Below, piece after piece: positions 38,485 to 43,123 of a stretch of DNA of 64,000 nucleotides. Source of the DNA: an uncultured Gammaproteobacteria bacterium. Its GTDB lineage: Bacteria; Patescibacteriota; Patescibacteriia; UBA1558; GWA2-36-10. The DNA lies in the NCBI GenBank assembly GCA_964638415.1, contig CAZWYP010000006.1, positions 2,244 through 66,243 on the forward strand, in the 5' to 3' direction. Position 1 is the first letter of the stretch; each line of letters starts with the position of its first letter. The notes beneath the pieces are model-generated. The model did not search any database. It saw only the letters and a program-made list of their open reading frames with translations, and was not told the origin of the DNA. A program made the translations under genes and the position numbers.

Positions 38485-38500
38485 ATAAATATTATATTAT

Positions 38501-39616
38501 TTAATCTTGAATGCAGCGAACAGAGCCTGCATAAAAATCTCCAGAAATAGCACCTCGATAACGACCTACCGTAGCTAAAGCACTGCTAAAAGTCCGATAC
38601 CAAGCACTACTTAAGCCATATTTAGTAGAAGACCAAATCCAGCCTGTACCGTCTTGATACAAAAACATATATTCATAATTATCCCAAATTCCGCCTAAAA
38701 CATCATTAAATCCAGAGGAACCTCCTGCTTTTAATTTAGTGCCTTCATTGGTTCCTCGCCAACCAGTAGTAGTCGTGTCAATCGGAAAATCAGTAGTACA
38801 GCTGCCAGAAGTACAGACTGCTCTTTCTAAAGTAGTAAATTCATCATGAGTTGGAATATGCCAACCGGTTGGACAAATACCTTGAGCGCCATTAACTTCC
38901 GAGCCACACATCGCTTGTGGCCAGATGTAAATACCACCATCTGCTGTACAATTAGCTTCCGAATCATTATAGCAATACTTTTTAATAGCCGCTGCCGAAA
39001 CGCAACTGTAACCACCAGTACCCCCAGCTACCCTGGTGCCGACATTAAGATTCTGTGCAAACCAGCACTGCGTGCCAATCTGCACAGTTGCATAATTAAC
39101 CCCCTCGTAACTAACCGTATCACCACAAGCAAATCCACCACCACCTTCTTCTCCGGCACTAGCTGTATATTCATAACAATGTTCAACTACAAAACCGGCA
39201 TCGCTTACTCTGGTAATATAATAACCCGTATCATCACCCGTAGCATCAGGATCAATTGGCAATTCACCAATGTACGGCTCCATTAAAGAAGCTAGATCAA
39301 CTCTGGCAATATCCTGACCCAAAGTGGTGCAGGTAGCATTACCGGCAGTGGAACCCCCAGCAGAAACCAGCATATAAGGAGTATTAAGAGTTAAAGCGGC
39401 AATAGCTGCTGGCACTGTGCCATTATTATCTGCTACTAAGGTAGTTAAGCATTTTTCTAACTCATCACAATTCTTATCTCGTAAGGAGTTTTGTGCTTCG
39501 CCAAAACGTCGAGCTGGATCAACTGCAACAAAAACTACCGCCGCCAATACCCCAATAACGGCAATTACTAAAATGATTTCTATTAAAGTAAACCCTTTCT
39601 CTTTACTTAAAAACAT
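38501..39616 (-). CDS. type IV pilin-like protein with C-terminal Fib_succ_major (FISUMP) domain
   Basis: 371 aa. Class III signal plus N-methylation site KG/FTLIEIILVIAVIGVLAAV. C-terminal QCWFAQNLN...CPTGWHIPTHDEF...WSSTKYG...GSVRCIQD matches the TIGR02145 pattern. Confidence 0.7.
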   Translation of the reverse strand: MFLSKEKGFTLIEIILVIAVIGVLAAVVFVAVDPARRFGEAQNSLRDKNCDELEKCLTTLVADNNGTVPAAIAALTLNTPYMLVSAGGSTAGNATCTTLGQDIARVDLASLMEPYIGELPIDPDATGDDTGYYITRVSDAGFVVEHCYEYTASAGEEGGGGFACGDTVSYEGVNYATVQIGTQCWFAQNLNVGTRVAGGTGGYSCVSAAAIKKYCYNDSEANCTADGGIYIWPQAMCGSEVNGAQGICPTGWHIPTHDEFTTLERAVCTSGSCTTDFPIDTTTTGWRGTNEGTKLKAGGSSGFNDVLGGIWDNYEYMFLYQDGTGWIWSSTKYGLSSAWYRTFSSALATVGRYRGAISGDFYAGSVRCIQD

Positions 39617-39718
39617 GTAAAATTGTTGCTTATCAACATTTTTAAGTTAACTTTAGCATTATTTGTAAGTAATTATAACATTTTTAATCAAAAAATCCAA
39701 AAATAATATTAAGAGGAA

Positions 39719-39747
39719 TTGACAAAAAATATAATCCAGAGTATGCT
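39719..39747 (+). promoter_or_regulatory. putative promoter TTGACA-17-TATGCT
   Basis: Perfect -35 hexamer at 39719-39724. 17-nt spacer. The gene at 39791 is preceded by a strong SD GGAGG. Confidence 0.35.
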
Positions 39748-39790
39748 ATTGCTTAATTTGTTCATTACACCAATTTAATCGGAGGAATCC

Positions 39791-40225
39791 ATGACTAGTT
39801 TAGGCCAATTTACCTGCCTTAATCCCCACTGTCCTGATCACCAAAAACCAGAACAAGGAAACATAACTTTATACACCTTTTACAGCCGGAAGCGAGTCCG
39901 CTTGTTACTCTGCCGTACTTGCGGCAAAACCTTCAGTGAACTGAAAGGGACGCCATTCTGGGGCACTAGACTGGATTGGAATACAATCGTTATCATTTAC
40001 CGTGGACTATTGTCTGGTGGGACCATTCGCGGCACAGCTAGAGACTACAATTTCTCCAAAAATACCATCAAGCGCTACCTAGATCTGCTTAATGACAATT
40101 TTCCTGCTGTGGAGAAATTACTAATTGACCAGCAGGTGATCTTACCTGGACAGCAGCAAATGCTCCTAGATCTAAAAAAACGCTTTCCTAGAACTGTTAA
40201 ATTAGCAGGCAAAAAAGCTCACTAG
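39791..40225 (+). mobile_element. IS1 InsA-like / transposase N-terminal zinc-ribbon + HTH protein (orphan, no DDE domain)
   Basis: 144 aa. C-x4-C...C-x2-C zinc ribbon (CLNPHCPD...CRTCGKTF) followed by an HTH (GTIRGTARDYNFSKNTIKRYL), as in IS1 InsA and IS1595 N-termini. Higher GC and a strong SD, unlike native genes. No downstream transposase catalytic ORF. Confidence 0.5.
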
Positions 40226-40242
40226 AACAGTGCTAATGGAAA

Positions 40243-40284
40243 TAAAAAACCCTGAACCAATTTGGACAGGGTTTTCTTCTTTTA
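40243..40284. terminator. bidirectional rho-independent terminator
   Basis: Hairpin aaccctg...cagggtt flanked by an A-run and ttttcttctttt. Shared by the plus-strand IS-like gene and the minus-strand Cys-rich ORF. Confidence 0.55.
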
Positions 40285-40285
40285 T

Positions 40286-40423
40286 TTAAGAGCAGCAGTC
40301 GCATCCATCGGCACAATTACAGCCTTCGCCGGAACAATTGCAGTCATTTTTACCGCAATTGCAACCCATTGAATCGCTGCAAGTACATGGATCATTGCCG
40401 CAATTTGGACAAACATCTCCCAT
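40286..40423 (-). CDS. metallothionein-like cysteine-rich small protein (45 aa)
   Basis: Not in the ORF track because it is under 60 aa. Minus-strand ATG to TAA gives MGDVCPNCGNDPCTCSDSMGCNCGKNDCNCSGEGCNCADGCDCCS. It has 13 Cys in 45 residues, arranged as CxC/CC clusters with no aromatic residues. Terminator immediately downstream. Confidence 0.5.
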   Translation of the reverse strand: MGDVCPNCGNDPCTCSDSMGCNCGKNDCNCSGEGCNCADGCDCCS

Positions 40424-40454
40424 GATTTGCAAATTAATAATTAACTATTTGTTA

Positions 40455-41789
40455 TTATAGACTATTAATAATTTCCCGCAAGGGCTGCATTAAACTGGAA
40501 GAGAATTCTCTATCAGTAATAGCCGATGAGGCCACAATAGCGTTATGTGGTTTATGCTTATCTCTCTGATATTTCCTGGGATAATGCGCTTCAATAGCAC
40601 CATTAGGTAAAACAAAAATATGATTGAGTTTCAATTCTTCAATTAACTGATCTGCATTATTGCTCTTTGGTCTAATCTTTAAATAATTTAAAATATTATT
40701 CAGCTGCCAACCAACTGCATCCCTATCCATGACAATTAAAAATCTGATGTTGAAAATCTTGAGTAATTCAATAAACAGCATCATATTCCCTTTGCCGTGG
40801 GTTTGCACCACCTTTATCTCCTGATCACCGCCATAATAACGATCAATTAAGCCGCGTAATAGGATTCTATCCGATACTCCTTCCACCAAAACTACGGTAT
40901 CGGCAAAAAACATTTCCAAATTATCCGCATCTAATTCCTGGATTAAGCGCTGGCCAAAATAATGACGTTTGGTCAAAGACAAACCAAAAGCTTCCGTACT
41001 CTTTTCGCTTTTTACCACTCTAATTACCTGCGGCAAGGTAATAGCTTTAATAAATAATGGAGAATGGGTAGTGAAGAATATCTGAGCACCACTGCTATTC
41101 TGCATCGCCCACAATAATTTCTTGATTAAAATAGGATGCAAATGAGTTTCTGGTTCGTCAATAATCACCAATTGGTATTCTGGATGGAAGATATAAAGCA
41201 AGATGGTAAAAACCCGGCGGAAGCCGGAACCTAGACGATCTAAGGTGACTTTCCTATCTGCTTCCTGCAGACCAGTTGTCTCATAATTAATATCTAGGGC
41301 ATTCTTGCCAGTAACTATCTTGGGAAAATGTTTAGCTAGATTCTGCTGAAACTCAGCCAAACTCTCCGGATATTTTCGCAGACTCTGCCAATCTTTCTTA
41401 ATCTGATCTAAATTATGAAAATCATTAGAAGTAAGGTGCTTAACTGTCTTTGCTAAATAATTAGCTAATTTTCCTTGGTAAGGCAATACTTTATTGCCAA
41501 AAATTAACTGCCGTTGCTTATTTTTTAACTGTAATAGGCCTTGGCTTAAAGGTAAATTAAATTGTTTCTGCTCTTCTTTGCTAAAATTCAACGCAATTTC
41601 AATATCTGCCTTGGGATAATCTAAAGCCTCACTGGTATCTTTCTTATTAAAAGCATAATCTATAGCATAAAGAATATTACTTTTGCCACAGTTGTTCTGA
41701 CCGATCAAAATACTAATCGGTAAACCAGTCAGTAAAATAGGCTTCTTGATGCTTTTGTAATAATTTATTTTTAGCTTGGCAATGCGCAT
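40455..41789 (-). CDS. OLD-family ATP-dependent endonuclease (AAA_21-type ATPase + TOPRIM)
   Basis: 444 aa. Walker A LIGQNNCGKSNILYAI (P2 Old/GajA-like GxNxxGKSN). Walker B LVIIDEPETHLHP. H-loop FFTTHSP. TOPRIM motifs VVLVEGVSDRILL and LIVMDRDA. Confidence 0.65.
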   Translation of the reverse strand: MRIAKLKINYYKSIKKPILLTGLPISILIGQNNCGKSNILYAIDYAFNKKDTSEALDYPKADIEIALNFSKEEQKQFNLPLSQGLLQLKNKQRQLIFGNKVLPYQGKLANYLAKTVKHLTSNDFHNLDQIKKDWQSLRKYPESLAEFQQNLAKHFPKIVTGKNALDINYETTGLQEADRKVTLDRLGSGFRRVFTILLYIFHPEYQLVIIDEPETHLHPILIKKLLWAMQNSSGAQIFFTTHSPLFIKAITLPQVIRVVKSEKSTEAFGLSLTKRHYFGQRLIQELDADNLEMFFADTVVLVEGVSDRILLRGLIDRYYGGDQEIKVVQTHGKGNMMLFIELLKIFNIRFLIVMDRDAVGWQLNNILNYLKIRPKSNNADQLIEELKLNHIFVLPNGAIEAHYPRKYQRDKHKPHNAIVASSAITDREFSSSLMQPLREIINSL

Positions 41790-43123
41790 TATAGCAATTG
41801 GATATCCTCTATTTCCCTGACCTTGTTATGCAAAACAATATTTTCAATGTGATAAGTTCCCATTTTCGGAGCATCTAAATATCCTTGCATAGCAGCTTCT
41901 GCCAGCCAGCCGGAATTCAGCCAGTCAAACAACCACTCATTGACATATTTGACATCCGGGGCATCAATGCCCGCTCCCAGAGCCAATAACCAATCCCGGT
42001 TATAAAACTCCTGAGAACCTACCGGTGGAGTCATTAAAATAGGAATGCCCAAGCCGCTGTAAAAAGTAAGTTCCGAGGGCTTGGTCCACAGAATATCCGT
42101 TGCTCTTAAGGCTTTGTTGAATAATTTAAAATAGTTCTGCTTGTCTTCAGAAAAGATAATATCAATATTTCTACAATCATTAAGCCGGCAGTCTTTAATG
42201 GCCTTTTGGAAAAAAACATAAACATCATTTCTGGCACCCGCTACTAAATTTAAATGAATTTGCCCAGTCTTAATTTGTCTATGCAATAAATGGGCAATTT
42301 CTGCGCCAATCTCTCTTTGCGCGCCAGCTCCACCCACCGCAAAAGTAATAGTCAATGGACGATTAGGCTTTTTAATGTTGCGAATCGGGCAAAGATAGTC
42401 TTCTAATAATTTTGAGTACTTATGCCGGTAAATTCCTTTGGGATCCAGCATAGCCAAGCGATCTTTTAAATCGCTTTTTAAAATCTTCTGATCCAAGCCT
42501 CCAATGTTCTCCTTAGGCAAAGGAAAGCCAGTGACATAAATATTCTGGGCTTTCACGCCGTACAATAAAAGGCGTTCTCTCACCCGCTTATTGGGAGCTA
42601 AATAGATAATTCTGCTTCTTTTTGGCTCCATTGGCGCCCAGGCTCTGGCGACATCGGCATCGGTAACTACTAGATAAATCTTTTCCGGATAATTATTGTA
42701 TTCTGCTACATAGGCCGGAACAAAAAAAGTAGTCACCATAGGCAATGGTTTTTTGCGCAAAATGTCTATTAAATTCTTGCCCATGCCCCGCTTAATCTTG
42801 CGGTAAAAGAATTTAAGCTGGGAATAAGGCTTAGATAAATCGCGCCGAGGATAAAACGGCTCAATCCTCTGGAAATAGTCCATTAAACGAAAAACCCATG
42901 GGCCGATGATCGGCACATCCTTAAAACGTGAAATCAATTCGTACAAAGTCCGGCTTTCATTCCATTCATACTGCTCGCGGCGAGAAATTCCCTGGTAGAA
43001 ATTAGCATTGATTACCCCATTGGGGCTTGAGCCAGCTAAGGGATGAGCGGCTCGCTGATGGCCATAGCCCATATCCACGGCAACGACATACATTTTATTT
43101 TGTTTTGGTGTTGGCTTGTCCAT
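41789..43123 (-). CDS. GT-B glycosyltransferase, MGDG-synthase/UgtP-like (GT28)
   Basis: 444 aa. N-terminal MYVVAVDMGYGHQRAA (cf. UgtP ILTANYGNGHVQVAK). Mid-region FVPAYVAEY...YLVVTDADVARAW...NIYVTGFPL parallels UgtP. C-terminal GT28 motif GIPILMTPPVGSQEFYNRDWLLALGAG. Its stop overlaps the OLD gene's start (TAATG). Confidence 0.65.
   Translation of the reverse strand: MDKPTPKQNKMYVVAVDMGYGHQRAAHPLAGSSPNGVINANFYQGISRREQYEWNESRTLYELISRFKDVPIIGPWVFRLMDYFQRIEPFYPRRDLSKPYSQLKFFYRKIKRGMGKNLIDILRKKPLPMVTTFFVPAYVAEYNNYPEKIYLVVTDADVARAWAPMEPKRSRIIYLAPNKRVRERLLLYGVKAQNIYVTGFPLPKENIGGLDQKILKSDLKDRLAMLDPKGIYRHKYSKLLEDYLCPIRNIKKPNRPLTITFAVGGAGAQREIGAEIAHLLHRQIKTGQIHLNLVAGARNDVYVFFQKAIKDCRLNDCRNIDIIFSEDKQNYFKLFNKALRATDILWTKPSELTFYSGLGIPILMTPPVGSQEFYNRDWLLALGAGIDAPDVKYVNEWLFDWLNSGWLAEAAMQGYLDAPKMGTYHIENIVLHNKVREIEDIQLL

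Follow-up and report, generated by a model that had tools for sequence, protein, structure and literature searches.

The DNA analysed here is a single stretch of 64,000 nt (the window), and at positions 40286-40423 its minus strand carries a short Cys-rich ORF that raises two questions, namely whether it is a gene and, if so, whether its product is a metallothionein. The ORF runs from an ATG at 40423-40421 to a TAA at 40288-40286 (138 nt), and its product, MGDVCPNCGNDPCTCSDSMGCNCGKNDCNCSGEGCNCADGCDCCS, has 45 aa, of which 13 (29 %) are Cys and none are F, Y, W or H. The peptide also contains 6 Asn, 6 Asp, 7 Gly, 1 Glu and 1 Lys, and is acidic and without a signal peptide. The first-pass annotation had reported this ORF, and its coordinates, strand, start, stop and translation were all correct when re-read from the sequence, as was its count of 13 Cys in 45 residues with no aromatic residues.

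In all six frames of the 64 kb window, no 45-codon stretch apart from the Cys ORF contains more than 7 Cys without a stop. The runner-up stretches, with 9 and 8 Cys, are both interrupted by stops, as is every other stretch with 7-9 Cys. The ORF has 15 TGY triplets, and 13 of them share one frame. A chance origin of this Cys codon periodicity, which had been raised earlier as grounds for setting the ORF aside, is disfavoured, as a frame with 13 TGY never arose in 20,000 dinucleotide-preserving shuffles of the ORF, where the highest count was 12 (seen twice). Judged by its sequence, the Cys ORF is non-random and probably a genuine small gene.

The G+C content of the ORF (0.464) is numerically higher than the window mean (0.396), as had been claimed. 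However, this is no sign of horizontal transfer and the argument built on it was rejected, as GC3 is 0.391, in line with the gene mean of 0.396, and the excess sits in GC2 (0.609), which is raised because the TGY codons for Cys and the GGN codons for Gly lift codon position 2. The choice of synonymous codons resembles that of the native genes. No DNA repeat was detected in the ORF by Tandem Repeats Finder, and Rfam gave nothing relevant, the sole match being a chance one to a snoRNA (E 0.22). An AlphaFold single-sequence model of MGDVCPNCGNDPCTCSDSMGCNCGKNDCNCSGEGCNCADGCDCCS was uninformative (pLDDT 53).

The Cys frame is overlapped on the minus strand by a +1-frame ORF (40282-40416) for a hydrophobic 44 aa peptide, MFVQIAAMIHVLAAIQWVAIAVKMTAIVPAKAVIVPMDATAALK, and either could be the gene. 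A public Logan contig, L001 (SRR10064596), which carries the adjacent OLD gene, is 100 % identical to the window over 17.2 kb, and on this contig the gene finder called the +1 frame (L001 7259-7393) and not the Cys frame. The exact MGDVCPNCGNDPCTCSDSMGCNCGKNDCNCSGEGCNCADGCDCCS is absent from public gene calls because the gene caller took the other frame. If this call is right, the locus encodes a small hydrophobic membrane peptide and the Cys frame is its shadow. The codon and amino-acid log-likelihood, trained on the long ORFs of the window, agrees with the gene finder, giving +0.32 per codon for the +1 frame, which is typical of genes here, and -0.30 for the Cys frame. However, this gap reflects only the rarity of Cys, which accounts for 0.56 % of the training codons. 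The two frames are entangled, such that TGC-AAT-TGC read one base on is GCA-ATT-GC. When the Cys peptide was resampled with synonymous codons, the +1 frame was open in 100 % of trials and equally hydrophobic (GRAVY 1.52, compared to the observed 1.48), and the +1 ORF therefore carries no independent information. In the reverse direction, synonymous resampling from the +1 peptide gave a Cys frame with about 9 Cys on average, which favours the +1 frame to some extent, but just 1.2 % of trials yielded a Cys frame that was open and had 13 Cys or more. Similarity in the databases belongs to the Cys frame only, with no homologues of MFVQIAAMIHVLAAIQWVAIAVKMTAIVPAKAVIVPMDATAALK found in a word-indexed search, from an index in which very short proteins may be missing. 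In addition, a GGGAG abuts the ATG of the +1 ORF with zero spacer. The hydrophobic +1 ORF was thus judged to be an automatic by-product, or shadow, of the Cys frame, and the opposite relationship is very improbable. This is an annotation trap, in that the hydrophobic +1 frame outscores Cys-rich micro-ORFs in gene finders. As the +1 frame of such micro-ORFs is always open and rich in Ala, Val and Ile, they are likely to be systematically mis-called and, as a consequence, absent from protein databases.

An intrinsic terminator, consisting of a hairpin and U-run at 40244-40277 on the minus strand, begins 8 nt past the stop codon of the Cys ORF. The hairpin is strong (dG -17.1 kcal/mol, z = -3.15; none of 200 shuffles equally stable), confirming the terminator previously noticed here, and is missed by a simple terminator scan as its loop exceeds 8 nt. 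Because it is flanked on both sides by T-rich sequence and adjoins a convergent plus-strand gene, lying 18 nt beyond the end of that gene, the hairpin may also terminate transcription from the other direction. On the upstream side, a perfect TATAAT (40454-40459, minus strand) that overlaps the stop codon of the OLD gene, 30 nt before the ATG, is a putative -10 element. The putative -35, TTGCGG (40476-40481), is separated from it by a 16 nt spacer and matches at 3 of 6 positions. This pair scores under the threshold of the promoter scan and was read by eye from the sequence, and because the -35 is poor, a promoter of its own at TATAAT is considered possible for the Cys ORF. The leader of the ORF is AT-rich and has no Shine-Dalgarno sequence, like the other genes of the window, and the missing ribosome-binding site is therefore normal here. 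Among the 45 long ORFs of the window, the leaders are AT-rich and almost no Shine-Dalgarno motifs precede the starts, and the organism seems to initiate translation without them.

The first-pass annotation had suggested either a metallothionein or a small zinc-ribbon peptide. A sequence relationship to the known metallothioneins (SmtA/BmtA, PF02069; MymT; eukaryotic) was not supported. Searches with MGDVCPNCGNDPCTCSDSMGCNCGKNDCNCSGEGCNCADGCDCCS found 0 families in Pfam and NCBIfam at E values up to 10 (the composition filters of HMMER may suppress weak Cys-driven matches), no PDB chain at E values up to 10, and no match in PADLOC or PHROGs. The zinc-ribbon option came nearer, as the N-terminal 18 residues are a CPxCGxxPCxC knuckle with four Cys (Cys4) and the rest resembles two degenerate copies of it. 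Among 1.84 billion representative proteins, searched exhaustively with phmmer, there was no full-length homologue and one match, P0001 (E 1.8e-4), which has three DVCPxCGNxPCTC repeats matching residues 3-20 of MGDVCPNCGNDPCTCSDSMGCNCGKNDCNCSGEGCNCADGCDCCS. A word-indexed homologue search with MGDVCPNCGNDPCTCSDSMGCNCGKNDCNCSGEGCNCADGCDCCS returned nothing, from an index that may omit very short proteins. When P0001 was used as the query, P0003 was found, a protein in which three tandem CPxCGKxPCxC repeats precede a rubredoxin-like RUBY_RBDX domain. The Smith-Waterman z scores of MGDVCPNCGNDPCTCSDSMGCNCGKNDCNCSGEGCNCADGCDCCS, calculated relative to shuffles of the peptide, were 8.8 for P0003 and 5.7 for P0001. 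The corresponding values for metallothioneins were 3.8 for human MT2A, 2.9 for MymT, 2.7 for the Neurospora Cu-metallothionein and 0.3 for SmtA, which is no better than shuffles. Using tblastn, the only matches in cultured phages had E values of 0.8 or worse. A match in a metagenome pattern scan, L004, was due to chance, as it shares just PNCGNDPC within an unrelated reading frame. Literature searches returned nothing pertinent on CPxCGxxPCxC motif strings, Patescibacteria metallothionein or tape-measure zinc sites, and the best-ranked literature matches, in so far as their accessible text goes, report no metallothionein from the candidate phyla radiation.

Within MGDVCPNCGNDPCTCSDSMGCNCGKNDCNCSGEGCNCADGCDCCS, module 1, CPNCGNDPCTC (Cys 5, 8, 13 and 15; 40379-40411, minus strand), is a canonical CPxCGxxPCxC knuckle. 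Residues 1-18, GDVCPNCGNDPCTCSDS, scored 27.8 bits against an HMM of 79 viral instances of the motif (E 1.2e-7 among 1,668 six-frame segments), compared to 7.2 bits for the next-best segment of the window and 11.5 for the highest-scoring of 2,000 peptide shuffles. Agreement is also seen at non-Cys positions, namely D-V before the motif, G-N-D-P inside it, T between the last two Cys, and an acidic/Ser tail. On these scores, module 1 clearly belongs to the CPxCGxxPCxC phage-type motif family. Module 2, CNCGKNDCNC (Cys 21, 23, 28 and 30; 40334-40363, minus strand), is degenerate, having lost both Pro and one residue, and it is found by the motif HMM only as a weak second domain (CGKNDCNC, -0.5 bit). 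However, in the alignment with P0003, VCPNCGNDPCTCSDSMGC-NCGKNDCNC is placed over LCPKCGKDPCKCEDSSVCPKCGKNPCKC, which puts module 2 in register with the second P0003 repeat, and the spacing from module 1 to module 2, 16 residues, is the tandem-repeat period of P0003. Module 3, CNCADGCDCC (Cys 35, 37, 41, 43 and 44; 40292-40321, minus strand), is the most degenerate and is metallothionein-like with its CxC and CC. DNA identity between the modules is 51-59 % and is dominated by the Cys codons. Overall, we read MGDVCPNCGNDPCTCSDSMGCNCGKNDCNCSGEGCNCADGCDCCS as three Cys4 modules in tandem, each more degenerate than the one before, with one additional Cys. This reading is strong for module 1 and, for modules 2 and 3, is made by pattern only.

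A degenerate DNA pattern for C-P-x-C-G-x-x-P-C-x-C was found in at least 120 viral contigs, compared to 48 viral contigs for a reversed-pattern control with equal information content in a complete scan. The HMM used above was based on the 79 distinct instances, among the viral matches listed, that are inside ORFs of at least 100 aa. Their consensus, [ED][VTK]CP[EKV]CG[KQN][NDS]PC[EVTQ]C[ED], is conserved also at positions where the pattern was left free, and DVCPECGKNPCVCE is an example of the canonical module, which is 11-15 residues long. Among the matches listed (L006-L125), the motif is found in tape measure proteins, fused prohead protease/major head protein, prohead protease/scaffold fusions, a prohead-protease-like protein with a coiled-coil tail, and several PHROGs of unknown function. 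It is often within acidic linkers, and examples of motif-bearing loci are L045:1302-4943 (-), L026:4957-6843 (-) and L094:924-2249 (-). Tandem copies are present in L078 (a 231 kb viral contig, P0003 type), L016, L057, L008, L011 and L111, and in L078 and P0003 the motif adjoins the rubredoxin-like RUBY_RBDX metal domain. No Pfam or NCBIfam model covering the CPxCGxxPCxC motif was found, nor was any paper naming it. The motif is real, and is a very common, uncurated four-cysteine knuckle of phage virion proteins.

Small Cys-rich viral proteins were also noted. A stand-alone 47 aa phage ORF, L096:8795-8938 (-), has the modules CPACGCDPCDC and CSRCGSGDCWC and is part of a tight gene array. GroEL-like, ClpP-like and amidase genes are also present on this contig. 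Among the matches listed, the 47 aa ORF is the closest architectural analogue of MGDVCPNCGNDPCTCSDSMGCNCGKNDCNCSGEGCNCADGCDCCS. A 128 aa viral protein encoded by L016:4502-4885 (-) contains 17 Cys and two tandem CPxCGxxPCxC modules, together with the Met/His-rich sequences MHMMGMGNM and DMHMAHDHQ, which recall sequences that bind Cu(I). A viral scan for the module 2 pattern (CNCG-x3-CNC) was set aside as it yielded mostly short out-of-frame chance ORFs. The one exception was a conserved 33 aa phage micro-ORF, MSDQNLENSKIKSCACGCLCTEQCNCGCEDCNC, which is metallothionein-like with 10 Cys and, in two freshwater viral contigs (L184:5814-5912 (+) and L187), exactly fills the gap between two co-directional genes.

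Residues 1-18 of MGDVCPNCGNDPCTCSDSMGCNCGKNDCNCSGEGCNCADGCDCCS are like the motif in the phage proteins, both those with tandem copies (P0003/L078, P0001 and L057) and those with single copies (tape measure, prohead protease/scaffold/head). However, the modules make up the whole of MGDVCPNCGNDPCTCSDSMGCNCGKNDCNCSGEGCNCADGCDCCS with no host domain, the second and third copies are shortened and without prolines, and the Cys ORF is on a Patescibacteria chromosome and not in a recognisable phage. With metallothioneins (the Neurospora-type Cu-metallothionein, the vertebrate beta-domain, SmtA/BmtA and MymT), MGDVCPNCGNDPCTCSDSMGCNCGKNDCNCSGEGCNCADGCDCCS shares small size, 29 % Cys and CxC/CC clusters, and it is likewise without aromatic residues or His and rich in Gly, Asn, Asp and Ser. 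The metallothionein-like composition that had been claimed for it is thus borne out, and MGDVCPNCGNDPCTCSDSMGCNCGKNDCNCSGEGCNCADGCDCCS has the features by which metallothioneins are operationally recognised (small size, about 15-30 % Cys, few or no aromatic residues or His), a likeness of composition only. The C-terminal CxC-x4-CxC-x4-CxC-x3-CxCC of MGDVCPNCGNDPCTCSDSMGCNCGKNDCNCSGEGCNCADGCDCCS is similar to the spacing in the metallothionein beta-domain and in fungal metallothioneins (z 3.8 for MT2A and 2.7 for N. crassa), but the CPxCG knuckle at the N-terminus is foreign to metallothioneins. The layout with a Cys4 in each module suggests separate sites and not the bridged M3S9/M4S11 clusters.

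A further comparison is with the haloarchaeal C(P)XCG zinc-finger micro-proteins, described in PMC2253796 and PMC11241148 as proteins of <70 aa that include Brz, with 49 predicted in Haloferax volcanii. As portrayed in these two sources, they are like MGDVCPNCGNDPCTCSDSMGCNCGKNDCNCSGEGCNCADGCDCCS in their tiny size, in having a CPxCG-type Cys knuckle and in being frequently missed by annotation. However, compared by description (PMC11241148), MGDVCPNCGNDPCTCSDSMGCNCGKNDCNCSGEGCNCADGCDCCS has one CPxCG with an adjacent CxC and far more Cys. Going by that account of the group, MGDVCPNCGNDPCTCSDSMGCNCGKNDCNCSGEGCNCADGCDCCS falls outside it, as it contains one CPxCG (CPNCG) and the CNCG of module 2 is CxCG, not CxxCG (PMC11241148). 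In rubredoxin, CPNCG is the classical second knuckle. There, the two knuckles are about 30 residues apart on a beta-sheet fold, whereas module 1 has four Cys within 11 residues, and MGDVCPNCGNDPCTCSDSMGCNCGKNDCNCSGEGCNCADGCDCCS has no match to rubredoxin in Pfam.

In minus-strand order, the genes in the region are a DUF6938/MGDG-synthase-like gene (41789-43123, minus), a gene for a 444 aa OLD-family ATPase with a TOPRIM nuclease (40455-41789, minus), the Cys ORF, the terminator, a convergent 144 aa gene (39791-40225, plus), a type IV pilin-like Fib_succ_major gene (38501-39616, minus), and genes for EamA, a glycoside hydrolase and an S8 peptidase. The OLD gene is upstream of the Cys ORF, co-directional with it and 31 nt away. 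The neighbouring genes include no metal-sensing regulator, P-type ATPase or CDF transporter. The convergent 144 aa ORF had been called a transposase remnant. It has a Cys4 ribbon, an HTH-like stretch and weak TnsD-like similarity, but no catalytic domain, and its score against the Pfam TnsD-like model is sub-threshold (25.2 bits; cut-off 32.4), so that the label is only partly upheld.

Among 185,579 species genomes, a relative of the OLD protein was found in one only, the Patescibacteria MAG L003 (52 % identity). The order in L003 is DUF6938, OLD, EamA and glycoside hydrolase, with 1 nt from the OLD stop to the EamA start, and a block of 1,970 bp (38485-40454), which includes the Fib_succ_major gene, the TnsD-like gene, the terminator and the Cys ORF, is therefore absent there. 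No trace of the Cys peptide or of the TnsD-like gene was found in L003 using tblastn. The presence and absence of this variable block fits its acquisition or loss as a unit, and with two genomes compared, gain and loss cannot be told apart. The earlier proposal that the Cys ORF was acquired together with the IS-like gene is helped by the finding that both are in the block missing from L003, but not by the GC content. A search for repeats found no convincing element ends for the 2 kb block. Conservation of the reading frame in relatives, to which the first-pass annotation had looked for a decision, is neither supported nor contradicted, as the sole other copy is 100 % identical and the lone related genome lacks the segment. 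The Cys ORF, as a member of this block of about 2 kb, probably stems from the gene pool of phages or mobile elements, in which the module is frequent.

Further features of the flanking genes were observed. The OLD gene (40455-41789) and the DUF6938 gene (41789-43123) overlap by one base and, because of this overlap, are probably translationally coupled. The DUF6938-OLD pair is syntenic in two Patescibacteria (L003 4655-7335, 52 % identity), where it is inside a cell-envelope/glycosylation cluster, and it has no helicase or other known partner gene alongside. The protein encoded at 38501-39616 has an N-terminal methylation motif, is type IV pilin-like and is fused to a Fibrobacter succinogenes major domain. 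Its gene, which is in the same variable block as the Cys ORF, has a GC3 of 0.27 and a GC2 of 0.51.

The reading we tentatively prefer, with something approaching an even chance of being correct, is that the product of the Cys ORF is a metallothionein-like peptide predicted to bind, buffer or sequester metal. Four thiolates within 11 residues, opening with a rubredoxin-type CPxCG turn, are the geometry of a minimal metal knuckle, and the RUBY_RBDX domain beside the motif in P0003 and L078 fits metal binding by analogy. A role in metal buffering is proposed because the peptide holds no other domain. Translation of MGDVCPNCGNDPCTCSDSMGCNCGKNDCNCSGEGCNCADGCDCCS, metal binding, its stoichiometry and the physiological role are what we infer, and the sequence of events would be as follows. 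Transcription would come from read-through from the DUF6938-OLD operon, or from the TATAAT at the OLD stop codon, and the transcript would end at the hairpin at 40244-40277. The product would be made up solely of the three tandem Cys4 modules, module 1 forming the rubredoxin-type CPxCG turn followed by PCxC, and modules 2 and 3 being drifted copies with the metallothionein-type patterns CxC-x4-CxC and CxC-x3-CxCC. In each module, four thiolates would enclose one soft metal ion, giving about three ions per peptide. Zn(II) would be the most likely metal, and Cu(I) or Cd(II) are possible alternatives. Confidence in this reading is held back because there is no metal-homeostasis gene nearby and no orthologue.

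Other readings of the peptide have to be set beside metal buffering. The metal might merely stabilise the fold of a peptide whose action is to bind a protein, DNA or RNA partner, as a mobile-element or phage accessory, e.g. a regulator, an anti-defence factor or an assembly factor. The module mostly occurs in one or a few copies in phage tape measure, prohead protease/scaffold and head fusion proteins, as a structural knuckle, and by analogy its location inside large phage structural proteins suggests a structural, not a buffering, role. The linkage of the Cys ORF to a Zn-ribbon/HTH transposase-like gene in the variable block points the same way, as do the regulatory and other non-buffering roles of haloarchaeal C(P)XCG micro-proteins, in the accounts of PMC2253796 and PMC11241148. 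However, a peptide with 29 % Cys has hardly any surface other than Cys (one Lys, no basic patch and no aromatic residues) and hence little scope for specific recognition of a partner or nucleic acid, and modules 2 and 3 are metallothionein-like, without the Pro residues of the structural motif. We consider an accessory of this kind unlikely. Alternatively, the ORF might be an inert leftover, namely a Cys-knuckle linker fragment of a phage or mobile-element protein with an ATG and stop kept by chance, and be unexpressed or inconsequential. It is an orphan in one genome and missing from the relative L003, it adjoins an apparently truncated transposase-like gene, its modules 2 and 3 are degenerate, and chance readily produces ORFs of this size (9 kb of sequence contains 55 with 30 aa or more). 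That it is a leftover nonetheless appears quite unlikely. The ORF fills its gap exactly, because the motif flank usually begins two residues after the position of the ATG, and a strong terminator follows the stop after 8 nt. Moreover, all 13 Cys codons are intact and in frame, codon usage is native-like, there is no upstream in-frame continuation (a TAG is at 40447-40445), and comparable stand-alone micro-ORFs occur in tight phage gene arrays.

The position of the Cys ORF, which follows the OLD ATPase-TOPRIM gene after 31 nt and in the same direction, might be taken to indicate that the peptide is the partner of the OLD nuclease in a two-gene defence system, and the presence of an S8 peptidase and an EamA exporter within 6 kb that it is the precursor of a ribosomally made natural product. 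Both are highly improbable. The former is largely refuted by synteny, as OLD directly precedes EamA in L003, where OLD, EamA, the glycoside hydrolase and the remaining neighbourhood are kept without the peptide. OLD is therefore not an obligate partner, and the peptide has no PADLOC match. As for the latter, the neighbours lack radical-SAM, lanthionine and cyclodehydratase genes and the peptide lacks a leader/core organisation. A SCIFF or other Cys-rich ribosomal peptide precursor was likewise rejected, with no NCBIfam match and no maturase among the neighbours.

What appears to be new here is a stand-alone tandem Cys4 micro-ORF that is placed by its sequence outside the metallothionein families and is tied to a widespread phage motif. 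The value of this finding is limited by its being a single-genome orphan. Bacterial metallothioneins are few and, if MGDVCPNCGNDPCTCSDSMGCNCGKNDCNCSGEGCNCADGCDCCS does bind metal, it would represent a new family derived from a different module. It is conceivable, though doubtful, that the Cys ORF is the minimal stand-alone form of a widespread phage-world Cys4 mini-domain and that, in tandem, this mini-domain constitutes a new, independently evolved type of prokaryotic metallothionein. If true, an ultra-small Patescibacteria genome would have captured such a metallothionein, and genes of this kind would be systematically missed by gene finders, which would call the hydrophobic shadow frame in their place.
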